Assembly: GCF_964204865.1 (NCBI RefSeq)
Contig: NC_135260.1
Coordinates: forward strand, 20,460,001-20,524,000
DNA: 64,000 bases
Direction of reading: 5' to 3'
Source of the DNA: Styela clava
Lineage: Eukaryota
Made by a program: the position numbers and the translations under genes. Below, piece by piece: positions 3,101 through 9,100 of the stretch. The notes below the pieces were generated by a model. That model was not told the origin of the DNA, made no database searches, and saw nothing but the letters and a program-made list of their open reading frames with translations. The stretch's first letter is position 1. Every line of letters begins with the position of its first letter.

Positions 3101-6100
3101 GAGTAATTGCTTATGCAAATCACTTCCTATTTTCTAAAGTAATCCTCCAAACTCGAATTGGCTTTTAAATTGACATTGCCAAGTGATCCAAAGTGATAGA
3201 GAACTATTATCAAATTGTATCTGAATGCAATTTGCTCAACTGGTTTATTTAGCTCAAGGATATTTTCATGATATTTGTTGGCCAAACAAAGTTGGTTCCT
3301 TTCCCATGAACAGGACTGCTTTGTTTTTGAGCTTTAATTTTTTTTACTACAGTGTACGGTATTCCAGTAGACAACACCACCATTTTAAGCGGTATGTCCA
3401 ACACATAGCACCAAGCTTCTGCTTCTTTGCCAAGTCAATATTCCACATTTAAAACATGTTATAAGAAAGGAAAACATTTAGAAAACACTAAATTAATGCT
3501 TTAAAATCATCTAAAACACCCACATTACAACTGCTATTCGCTATTCTAGAATATTTCATTGGGGTTCCTCTCAACCAAAAATGTTGAAAACCACTGATCT
3601 GTTATAATACAATCTTCTGAAATTTCACTGACAACCTACAGTACTGGTATATTTGTCTAAAAGATAACACATGATTAGTATATTGCATGGCTGAATGATC
3701 TCATATAATTGCTGCATTTTAATAACAAAGCATACATTTTTGTGTTTTCTGGTAGATATTTTATCTAATGAAAGGTGTGGCTTTGCTATCATGTAAAACG
3801 AGTATATACTTGGAAAAAAATTTAAATTATCATTTGCTGGCTTTGTTGGATTTTTTGTTCGTTTTCGAAAAATGGCATATTTATCAAGATTTGTAATCAG
3901 GAATTTTTGGGGACTGATGAAATAATTCAAAAATATACAGCATTTTATCCACAAATTAATATTGCAAAATTCACCTCATTAAACATCAATTACTTACTCC
4001 TGATTTGTAAATATAATTGAAGTTGAATTGAAGTGAACATGAGAGCGTGGAGTGAAAAATAAATACTTCCTAATTTTTGTGGAAGGAAATTTATGGATAC
4101 TGTTTAAACTGTGTAAACAAATCACATTGCACCATACATACAAATTATCTACAGTACAATCACATAAAAATTGAAACTTTAACATAAACACCAGTCTTAA
4201 ATTTTACTGTAATACAAACAAGACATCTGACAATCTCACAAAACTAGTTGGTAATGACTCACTAAAAAGTGCTTGGTTTTAAGTAATAAAATTAGTAAAA
4301 CAGACACATTCAAACACAAAATAACAAAAATGTTCATTGCTTTTTATAACACAGAAGTGTGAAATACACTTGATGCTCAAGAAATAATTATAGAATAATA
4401 TCACATTATCACTAACGTGTAGTTGACAATCTTTGTTCAGCGAGCATGCTTGTCTTATAGTTCTTTTGTTACTTGTTATAAATTAATTCTGTGCTAGATT
4501 AGTATCACAGGATGAATATTTCGAGTTCGCATTTCGAGTTTGGTATAATAAAATTCACTGTAGCTAAAAAATTATCAACCTTCCCAAAAACATATTAGCT
4601 CAAAAAGATGCAATTCAAAAGTGATTACTCTTTGCCAGTCTTACACCAAGATGTCACTACTTTTGTTTATTTACATCACACACGAAAAAAAAAAGAGAAA
4701 GAATTTAAATATTTGGAGGATTGTGACTTTGGCCATGCTCATGAAAATTAATTGAATGACAAGTTTACATTCGCGCTTTTCAAAATTGATCCTCAGTGAA
4801 AGGTCACGTCCATTAATAATGAAGACTTATTCTAAACCATGACCCTGACAGTTCCCAAGGGTTGGCTTTTCAGCATCCGTGTATTTGGAAATGAAAGTAC
4901 CGGTAATCCTGTTTTGGCAATATAGGACTAAATATTCATTGCGTAAAATATGCTTAAATGGTTTTTTTGAAAGTTTTGAGAAAATTGTTTTCATTATCAA
5001 TAATATTTTGGTGAAAAATAAAATCTTAACTCATAACATTTATTTTTTCTATACAGCGTTTTCATGACTTCACTCTAAACAAGTGTTTATGTGTTACCCC
5101 TTTTATTACGTTGCATAGGAGGAACAAATTTGATTGTGGTAATGATTGAGTGACAATGATAATATTGTTTTAATGTTTCAGAATTATGATCAACCCAGGT
5201 AATCACGTTAAAATTCAGGAGGGAACACTTGGATTTTTTGTCGCACAATCTGCTAAGGAAGTAAAGAGGTGAGTTGAGAATTGTGCAACAAAATGTTTTG
5301 AGGTTTGAATGATCAATTTTCTTCCCTGCAAAAAAGGGTAAATCAATTTTTTAATAGATGTGTTGCAGGGTTTTTCGACGAAGTACCTATCCCGTATTTC
5401 ATATTATTGTTACTTCTTGATTTGTGTGTTTTATAGCAGCAAAAAAGTCTCATTCCAACATTCATTACTGTATTGCAATTCTGATTAGGGCAAATTTTAA
5501 ATATAAAACAAACAAATATTGAGTCAGTTTACGAAACATTTTTTCCAATTACTAGAGCATTCTATTATTGCAAAGACTGTCATGGTAATGTAGATGATGA
5601 GAAAAAACTCCAGGTTTGCGAACATTTCAAAAGTAAGCGAAGTCAAAAATTGATGCACTTTGAATAATTCTGGAATTATTGCGCATGTTTAGTTGTTGAA
5701 GATTTGATCTTTTGTTTTTTCTTTATAATTACACATATGCTTAGTTTTTCTATTTCTATTCTAACTCAGTATACTATACTTTGCTTCAATTTTTTTACTT
5801 TTAAATTTTCAGCCCATCGTCTGTTAATCATTAACAGATTGCATATATGTTTAATTAATTTAAAGAAATTTTGAATGTATTTTTTAATTTTTTTTTTTTT
5901 AATTCATTTCTTTGCTTGTCTATATGAAATCATTGGAATTCCAATCATATTTTAGATTCCTCTAAATTGAGAATTTACAAGTAATTACAAGTTTTAATAT
6001 AATTGAAAACAATTGCCGTGCATGAAAAGAAAGTATTGGAATAACAGTATTCACTGTAAAAATTAAATATACTAAATTTGACTAAAAAACATGATTTTCA

Positions 6101-9100
6101 CACAATTTTTGAAACTAATATTCCTTGCAAATTCTATTTTGAAAAGATTCAACAAATTGAATATTGAAATGTCTAGTTTACCAAATATCACACAGTGCGC
6201 TGTATACCCATGTGTTATGGAGTAAGGCGTCTATATTATTTAATTATCACCATAGGGCACTGTTATACTGCAAATCATGTCATGAGGATATCGCATACCC
6301 AGATCTTATAAAATCATGCGAATGCCGACGAAAAAAAGAATTGTCAAGTAAGAAAAGTGGTTGTCGCATGATGGTGGCGCTTTTGTATTGTTATGTGCGT
6401 GCTTTATATACAAACGTTTGCATTCATTCAATTGTACTTTCAAAAAATGCCGATATCAAAATGGCATATTTATACAGTGGCATCAAAAAATGGTCAAACT
6501 ATAATATTTCATTGAAGATAGTGGTGATTATTCAACTTTACTTGTTTCAAAATATACGGTACTGATGATTTATCTTTCCTAAAACTTCAAATTGAATCTC
6601 TTTCACTCATTTACACCTTTTAATTTGACTCAAATTCTTTTGAATTCCCTTTAAATATCTTTGCTTATGTTTTATGTAATGCATGGCTGCATGTAATGGG
6701 AGAATGCATGAAATTCTTTGTTAATTAATAGTTTGATTATTGGTATCTCGTAAAATGAGAAGAATTTGTGAATATTAATTTTTTGAACTACTCGATGAGA
6801 GTAATATAAAGAATTTAAGTTAATTTATAAATTTTGTACTCAAGCAGAAAGTGCTCTTTCACCAAAGGAATTTTATAAAAGATTCAAAATGTCAATTATT
6901 ATTTGAGAGAATTAATAATTCCAAAATAATGCCATGTCTTTCTGTACTTGTGTAATCGTTTATTCTGTAATGAGATACTTTATATTATTCTACCAAGCAT
7001 ATTGATATGTGAGCTGTATGTTTTTGTATATGATAAATGTTAATGTGAATATATTCTGTTGTTTTCGTTCTCTTATTAAACTAAAACTGTGAAATATCAG
7101 TCAATTTTGTGTTATTAGTTGACTGTTTTTCGATACTGCAGGCAAGCGCAAGTCGCACCTGTTTGTATTTCCGAGCAGCAAACCAGTACACGGTAAGTCA
7201 TTGTTCAATGGTGGCTATATTTAATTTGCTTCTCAAATAAATAAAGATTAATTAATTCCTACTAATTGTATGTTTCGTTTTGGTGGTTCAATTAATTCTA
7301 TTCCACTGTCAACAATTTTTTTTCAACTTGAAGATTAATTTTAAACATTGAAATTTGAATAAAAATTTTCAGGCAGTTTTGCTTTAACATAGCTAGTAAA
7401 CCATGGCTGTGACATGTTTAACCATAATTTAACCAAGGGACAGCTTATTTGAATCTTGTTATATCATGAATGTAATTCCATATCAAGCTTATTTAAAATA
7501 TTATGACTGTTGTATAATTAATGATGCTTCTATAATTATATTTATTTTGCTGCTGTTTGTGCTTCATGTATGTTATTCTGTTAATGCGTTATGTGTGTAT
7601 ATGCCATCTATTATTTGTTATGTATGGTTTGTCCAGTGAATATGTTTATTTTCAAGCAACTCTGTATAAAAACTTACTATCTTGTGGCTAAAAATGGATT
7701 CTGTTTATGCTAGAGAATTCATTCTAACCCCAGTTGAGCGATTCGACAACATTAAATAATAAACACAATTTGATTCAAAATTGTATAAAATAGGCAATCG
7801 GAAGAAAGCAAAAACCCTTGTTGTATCGGAAGGTTCATGTCTACTTTTTGATGGCAACCACACCAATTCAGACAGACAGATTTGTTCGGTTCCCCCAATG
7901 CATCGCGGTAAATTTTACATTGGGAATGCAGAATGCATCTGTTCTCTGTCCCCGTTTATGATTTGTTCTGTTCTGTTTTGTTTCATCATAAACTAAATTC
8001 AGTTGCTGAATGGATATTTTTACTTTTGCAAGAATTTTTTTTATTATTACCGGTACATGTTTGTACGGTTTTTATTTGTACAAGTGTTTATTAAAATGAA
8101 TTGTTGTTTCTGGAAGACTAATTTATTAAATCATTACTTTTGTTTTACAAAAATTGTGTAATTCAGAAGCCAAGTCTTACAACAATAATATTTATGTAAA
8201 TGACTCCTCGAACACAACTATTCACACAGTTTTGAATTAATCATTAATAACTATCATTAATTAAAACTAGGTTCAATTAAAATGCTGCAACTGCCTGCCT
8301 GCTTGTAAATCATGAAGAAGCTTTGGCTTTTAAACCATGTTGTTATGATAAAAACTACTATAATTAAAACTAAAATAGTTTCTTATACCATCTTTGATAA
8401 CTTTTATTAAATGCATAGGATACTGATTCAATTACCGTAAGTGCAGTAAAAATGTCTATAAACATTATGGACATGAGAGAATGAACTTAGTGGGTTCAAG
8501 ATGATGATTGCTGTAAATATTTATTTTATTTGACAACCTGCGGCCATTGTCAACACAAACTTATTATTTAGCTATGCTGTTCAAAAAATTTTTCTTACAA
8601 TTATATGCTTAGAATATTGTATGTAAATTCTTATCATCTTGAAATCCCACTACTTATATCACAATATGTCTCTATTGCAGCCTAATAGCTCTCTCTGGAG
8701 AAAGCTGCTCAAATCATGGTTGAATTATTTATCAATCCCAGATTTTATTTTTATTTTAGCACAACATGAACTTGTCACATTCACTATTTTTGTTCCTTGG
8801 ATTTTGTCTTCTGAATTTTATGCTGTCATTATTATAATTTCTCTTCATTTATAGTTTTCATTGTAGTTGCATGTCAACCACGTTAACAGCTTTCATACAA
8901 GAATAATATAATAGATGAGTGAGGTCTATAGGTTGAGCTTGCTAGAGCAAAAGTTCTAAGAGACACCTTAACTAATTGTTACAGTAATTATCAATTATTA
9001 GGTTGATATGTCTTTCACCCATGTGGAGTTGTGTTTCGAATCAGTTTCTTATTATAATCAAGTACGATCATTAAAAAATGCATGGTTACTTACAAAAATT

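Follow-up and report, generated by a model that had tools for sequence, protein, structure and literature searches.

Tandem-duplicated exons that are spliced as mutually exclusive alternatives are a recurrent feature of the genes encoding the BK channels, having arisen convergently in human KCNMA1, in Drosophila slo, where three events are recorded, and in Caenorhabditis elegans slo-1, with homologous neighbouring exons being swapped one for one in each case (PMC9741552). Duplicated exons in the BK genes are also treated in PMC3342872. The same kind of exchange probably occurs in the ascidian Styela clava, in a window of 64,000 nucleotides (assembly GCF_964204865.1, contig NC_135260.1, positions 20,460,001 to 20,524,000 of the forward strand), where the slo1 exon encoding the CxxCH...CxC module, at the junction between the RCK1 domain and the linker, is present as two tandem copies, exons A and B. 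A preliminary description of this stretch, made from the letters alone, had already pointed to the mutually exclusive exons of insect slo. In Styela, the duplicated exon is the one that carries the heme motif itself, whereas the human, fly and worm duplications are presumably located upstream, between S6 and RCK1 or within RCK1. The pair thus extends a familiar type of BK splicing to an exon not previously reported for it, and its Ciona form is already present in automatic annotation.

In mammalian Slo1, the heme motif is CKACH (residues 612-616), and heme inhibition has been mapped to C612, C615 and H616 (PMC4319557), while the substitution C615S abolishes the sensitivity to hemin (PMC2217493). 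Both Styela exons have C-x2-C-H at the same place, although the mammalian work deals with a single constitutive copy, and the motif exists here as two exon copies; the vertebrate matches that contain the exon are all of one type. We know of no heme binding in any ascidian channel. Splicing at the vertebrate linker between RCK1 and RCK2 also alters the cysteine content of the channel and its response to redox conditions and hypoxia (PMC8727448), but the STREX exon is inserted after the CKACH exon, whereas A and B replace it. The gene in the window is identified as the S. clava slo1 (KCNMA1) by the homology of its membrane and RCK domains and by its Ca2+ bowl, which is present in the alignment; one of its RCK2 exons is a 100% match to the S. 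clava KCNMA1-like sequence, and the Slo1 structures in the PDB are matched at E=0. On balance, we think it probable that A and B are used one at a time, with the choice varying between samples, that the pair is older than the split between Styela and Ciona, and that the two resulting channels differ in the way the module adjusts gating, rather than in the presence of the heme site.

Both copies follow a constitutive exon (5182..5268, + strand, phase 2 to 2) that encodes the end of RCK1 (...KEVKR), and provides the donor shared by A and B. Exon A (5556..5632, +; 77 nucleotides, 25 residues) encodes CxxCH-x11-CxH, and exon B (6256..6347, +; 92 nucleotides, 30 residues) encodes CxxCH-x11-CxC, so that the copies differ in length, as well as evolving at very unequal rates. 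The borders are canonical AG/GT in both cases (tag/AGCA...AAA/gtaagc in A, and tag/GGCA...CAA/gtaaga in B), and each exon begins in phase 2 and ends in phase 1, in exact agreement with the coordinates of the preliminary description, which had called them paralogous. They are identical at 36 of 77 nucleotides, 9 of 25 third codon positions, and 8 of 25 residues (shuffle P=1.1e-4), and this low identity indicates that the copies are old. It had also been proposed that exactly one exon can be used, given that the inclusion of both or neither shifts the frame, and this was borne out by the translation of 16 paths: all eight paths with A only or B only remained open through the exon at 10285-10438, while the eight with both or neither stopped early, the both-included path at 6309. 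Each exon on its own matches the segment of the PDB Slo1 structures that starts at human residue 607 (best E 3.7e-4 for A, and 2.2e-5 for B). The two exons are the only CxxCH-x11-C sites on both strands of the 64 kb, and the motif had no occurrence in 300 shuffles of the 4409 nucleotides of flanking intron. A search of the genome with exon A recovered only exon A itself, and no third copy, nor any other duplicated slo1 exon, was found by tblastn between -14 kb and +18.5 kb.

The evidence from transcripts consists of the assembled contigs of four of nine RNA-like runs (X1, X2, X5, and X9, from three studies), none of which is recorded as RNA, but whose contigs are spliced across GT..AG introns and are taken as RNA on that basis; contig depth is a poor gauge of expression. 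The joint 2942>5182, into the upstream constitutive exon, is present in all four runs. The junction of this exon with B that the preliminary description had predicted (5268>6256, listed as 5266>6254) was recovered in three of the four (X1, X2, and X9), and is absent from X5, but neither the corresponding junction with A (5268>5556) nor the joint of double inclusion (5632>6256) is among the 15 of 21 joints listed, rare forms being lost from contigs. In runs X1 and X2, the contigs pass straight into B and then into cassette exon D (7794..7907, +; 114 nucleotides, phase 1 to 1), by a joint (6347>7794) that skips cassette exon C (7142..7192, +; 51 nucleotides, phase 1 to 1). Both cassettes occupy the linker position of STREX and other vertebrate linker inserts.

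In run X5, a single contig of 5055 nucleotides, with a depth of 12.9, spans the region. The value observed in its exon-A bin (2.29) is that predicted from the main contig over 79 nucleotides (2.29-2.30), whereas the exon-B bin (1.79) is under the value of at least 2.67 required if B were included. The same arithmetic leaves no room in this contig for cassettes C and D, which would make exon E (9847..9961, +; phase 1 to 2) the direct partner of A. In run X9, the main contig breaks off precisely at 5268, as would be expected where two paths diverge, and a second branch with a depth of about 26 over A accounts for the value of 4.69 in the A bin, as well as for the 1.66 left over in the bin upstream, alongside a listed B branch with a depth of 24.9. 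This type of depth inference also pointed to a further exon at 14853, where a proper acceptor is present. By this arithmetic, A would predominate in X5 and match B approximately in X9, and it is likely that either copy is used, depending on the sample.

All three Styela RefSeq models contain B and none contains A, as the preliminary description had anticipated for the annotation, although the anticipation fails for Ciona, where an alternative exon is found at the position of Styela A, in isoforms that come from automatic annotation only. In C. intestinalis, this exon is present in two of the 14 listed full-length members of the cluster (15 of the 19 members being listed), that is, the RefSeq isoforms X3 and X8 (XP_078494253.1 and XP_078494259.1), and it encodes 25 residues, in comparison with 30 for B, which are the lengths found in Styela. 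It is also present in one of the six C. savignyi models (H2ZIB6), which seems to be cut after the third cysteine. The CxxCH-x11-C is kept in the Ciona alternative exons, with C. intestinalis A retaining CxC where Styela A has CxH. The presence of both exons in relatives is seen in two species of Ciona, but not in the models of Clavelina and Phallusia, and protein searches found no A-type exons in further tunicates, one yielding no candidate and another five, none of which scored; this is a weak negative, given that short divergent exons share few words. Over 21 shared columns, exon B is identical at 18 positions between Styela and C. intestinalis, and at all 21 between the two Ciona species, whereas exon A is identical at nine and eight, respectively, a strong asymmetry of rates in which B is conserved and A changes fast. 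The view of the pair as duplicated, mutually exclusive exons is backed by the logic of the frame, the RNA contigs and the Ciona models, and the sequences make it likely, if not proven, that it arose before the Styela-Ciona split.

Independent duplication in Styela and Ciona would follow the convergence documented for other BK exons (PMC9741552), and would fit the observation that, outside the invariant residues, there is little in common among the A copies (9/21 and 11/21), and that, in a tree of 14 exon rows, the three A copies are grouped at just 56%, in comparison with 93% for the four B rows. We nevertheless consider this origin very unlikely, given the identical pattern of 25 and 30 residues in Styela and C. 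intestinalis, the replacement of a near-invariant isoleucine (81 of 96) by leucine or methionine in all three A copies, and the summed BLOSUM scores at the variable sites, which reach 13-15 among the A copies, in comparison with -5 to 9 between A and the tunicate B. A different possibility is that A is a weakly constrained, drifting duplicate, which yields a near-neutral isoform or a channel of reduced activity, and in which the ligands have no particular function. Its very fast divergence, evident even between the two Ciona species, is what drift would produce, as is its absence from the Clavelina and Phallusia models, and the Ciona A exons score 25.6 and 30.6 on a Slo1 position profile, at or below the 5th percentile (30.9), with 37.7 for Styela A and a median of 47.2. 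Against this, the reading frame and the C-C-H-C residues are kept in three species, the canonical splice sites in Styela, and the length of 25 residues in Styela and C. intestinalis, while the depth arithmetic makes A the main form in one run and about half in another; simple drift appears quite improbable.

The module that distinguishes the two exons is nearly uniform across the matches examined. A Slo1 profile returned 150 matches, of which 110 had the motif region (the 40 dropped were mostly fragments ending before it), and, among the 99 distinct Slo1 segments, the spacing of 11 is found in 97, and the fourth ligand is cysteine in 96 and histidine in one. This cysteine is also found in 52 of 54 aligned proteins, and in 101 of the 102 exon-containing sequences among the 120 matches to an RCK2 query, mostly from fish. 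The sole other Slo1-like segment found with histidine as the fourth ligand (CxH) belongs to a separate protein of 481 residues, which indicates that the swap has occurred elsewhere too. In the AlphaFold model of the Ciona B isoform, the predicted local distance difference test (pLDDT) score of the module is 80-93, with disorder from residue 653, and the segment thus combines four Cys/His ligands, fixed spacing and order. An ordered segment with four cysteines at a fixed spacing is suggestive of metal binding, and the module may form a folded thiol or metal site, with zinc as the probable, if putative, ligand partner. The exchange of cysteine for histidine is a common swap in zinc sites. In Styela A, it would represent a ligand swap that shifts the stability, redox behaviour, or heme affinity of the site, and, with the fourth cysteine being near-invariant in Slo1, the change probably matters.

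It had been suggested that this cysteine-to-histidine change turns A into a switch of heme, carbon monoxide (CO) and redox sensing, with the histidine acting, for example, as a second His ligand of heme. The substitution itself is confirmed, at a position that is cysteine in 96 of 99 segments, both exons are located on a known heme motif, and a distal histidine is part of the SUR2A heme motif, CxxHx16H (PMC5834611). The switching is, at best, weakly supported, and we consider it unlikely. The CxxCH at 612-616 is intact in both A and B, and the residues H365, D367, and H394 of RCK1, through which CO acts (PMC4319557), M691, the proposed second heme ligand (PMC12346439), and the oxidation sites C430 and C911 (PMC2217493) are all located outside the two exons, and are present in Styela according to the alignment. 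With these residues common to both isoforms, on-off switching of the responses to heme or CO by exon choice is unlikely, while the A and B isoforms may differ in heme affinity; a rival view has heme itself as the CO receptor (cited in PMC12346439). In one assay with MTSET, given as unpublished data, C628S and C630S resembled the wild type, while C615S did not (PMC2217493). The CxC retained in C. intestinalis A also implies that histidine is not a defining feature of this exon. A broader proposal is that ascidians splice between two ligand sets, the universal CxxCH...CxC of B and a re-engineered A, with histidine as the fourth ligand in Styela, which would produce tissue-specific responses to heme, zinc, or redox conditions. 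This is advanced only tentatively, but, if true, the BK heme motif would contain a switch by splicing that occurs in nature, and this would offer a ready means to test the function of the near-invariant CxC pair in every Slo1.

The choice between the exons may be set by a trans-acting factor, probably of the Rbfox type, acting through UGCAUG elements located after exon B and after cassette D, and nonsense-mediated decay would remove the transcripts with both exons or neither. We take TGCATG (UGCAUG) to be the Rbfox-type motif. Counts of this motif revealed three copies within 31 nucleotides downstream of B (6680..6710, +), and others at 6019, 8868, 9079, and 9477 (+), with the shorter GCATG at 5683 and 6366 (+). 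This corresponds to seven TGCATG in the 3957 nucleotides of the introns of the alternative region, in comparison with 2.1 expected (P=0.007), and none in 5327 nucleotides of constitutive introns, while the YCAY and YGCY motifs were not enriched. Exclusion by steric hindrance was ruled out by the intron of 623 nucleotides between A and B, and RNA pairing of the Dscam type, with docking and selector sequences, was rejected, given fold z values (0.21 for B, and 1.26 for A) that were no better than those of the shuffles. One of three duplex tests did beat 40 of 40 shuffles, which is suggestive, but the duplex did not appear in the fold. Within the alternative region (6308-9875), a large part of the intron sequence is covered in all four runs by unspliced contigs, at depths of about 2-11, whereas several constitutive introns have none, which suggests that this block is spliced slowly or under regulation.

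A number of points weigh against the view favoured here, of an ancient pair used one exon at a time and tuning the module. The tissues of the runs are not on record, contigs drop rare forms, and, with no joint into A among those listed, the splicing of A rests on the arithmetic of depth. The orthology of the A exons rests on their lengths and on a weak tree of 21 columns, which could reflect long-branch attraction, and A is absent from seven of seven Clavelina and one of one Phallusia full-length models. The profile search favours proteins with these cysteines, the human linker has been described as not resolved in structures (PMC12346439), and a literature search found no zinc binding by the module. 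The TGCATG test was post hoc, and one of 12, and the search for an Rbfox gene with PF12414 was uninformative, as it returned no match and its controls were silent too. The literature search also listed no paper on the tunicate A/B exons; four works known from citations (Fodor & Aldrich 2009, Copley 2004, Lagrutta 1994, and Yi 2010) may be relevant to how new the pair is, or to what C628 and C630 do.

Alternative splicing is also apparent elsewhere in slo1, which is traced by tblastn from a point some 14 kb before the window to past 18.4 kb. A microexon of 39 nucleotides (13 residues; 3353-3391, +), with a TGCATG at 3684, separates the RefSeq models X1 and X2, and is skipped by the main contig in all four runs; it is presumably near the site of the vertebrate SRKR insert. 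Three alternative acceptors after the exon at 14380 (14853, 16265, and 18000, +) lead to different C-termini; those at 16265 (runs X1 and X2) and 14853 (run X9) are deduced from the loose ends of contigs, and are missing from the two RefSeq models. The Ciona models also have two C-termini. A search of the genome with PF03493 found at least two BK-family loci, slo1 and a Slo2/KCNT-like gene at about 9.706-9.717 Mb of the same contig, with no second Slo1 or Slo3, and CxxCH-x10-12-C is absent across the 40 kb of the Slo2-like locus.

The rest of the window contains a Bel/Pao long terminal repeat (LTR) retrotransposon (35090-42725, +), with an open frame of 1982 residues (35854-41799) that includes the Peptidase_A17, DUF1759, DUF5641, and integrase Zn domains. 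The element is bounded by repeats of about 780 nucleotides each, which are near-identical, and the insertion is thus probably recent. Exons of an adenosine-deaminase gene (an ADAR/ADAT-type editase, PF02137) are found at about 46600-48600 (-), and a gene of the Sulfotransfer_4 family at about 60970-63790 (-).

Across Slo1 sequences from sea anemone to human, the CxxCH-x11-CxC module hardly varies, but a role has been assigned only to its first half, and structures resolve this segment poorly. Ascidians belong to the sister group of the vertebrates, and Ciona is genetically tractable. These animals offer natural paired variants of exactly this exon within a single channel, among them the rare form in which cysteine is replaced by histidine. 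The pair adds a further exon to the convergent exon duplications of the BK genes, and corrects the gene model of Styela.

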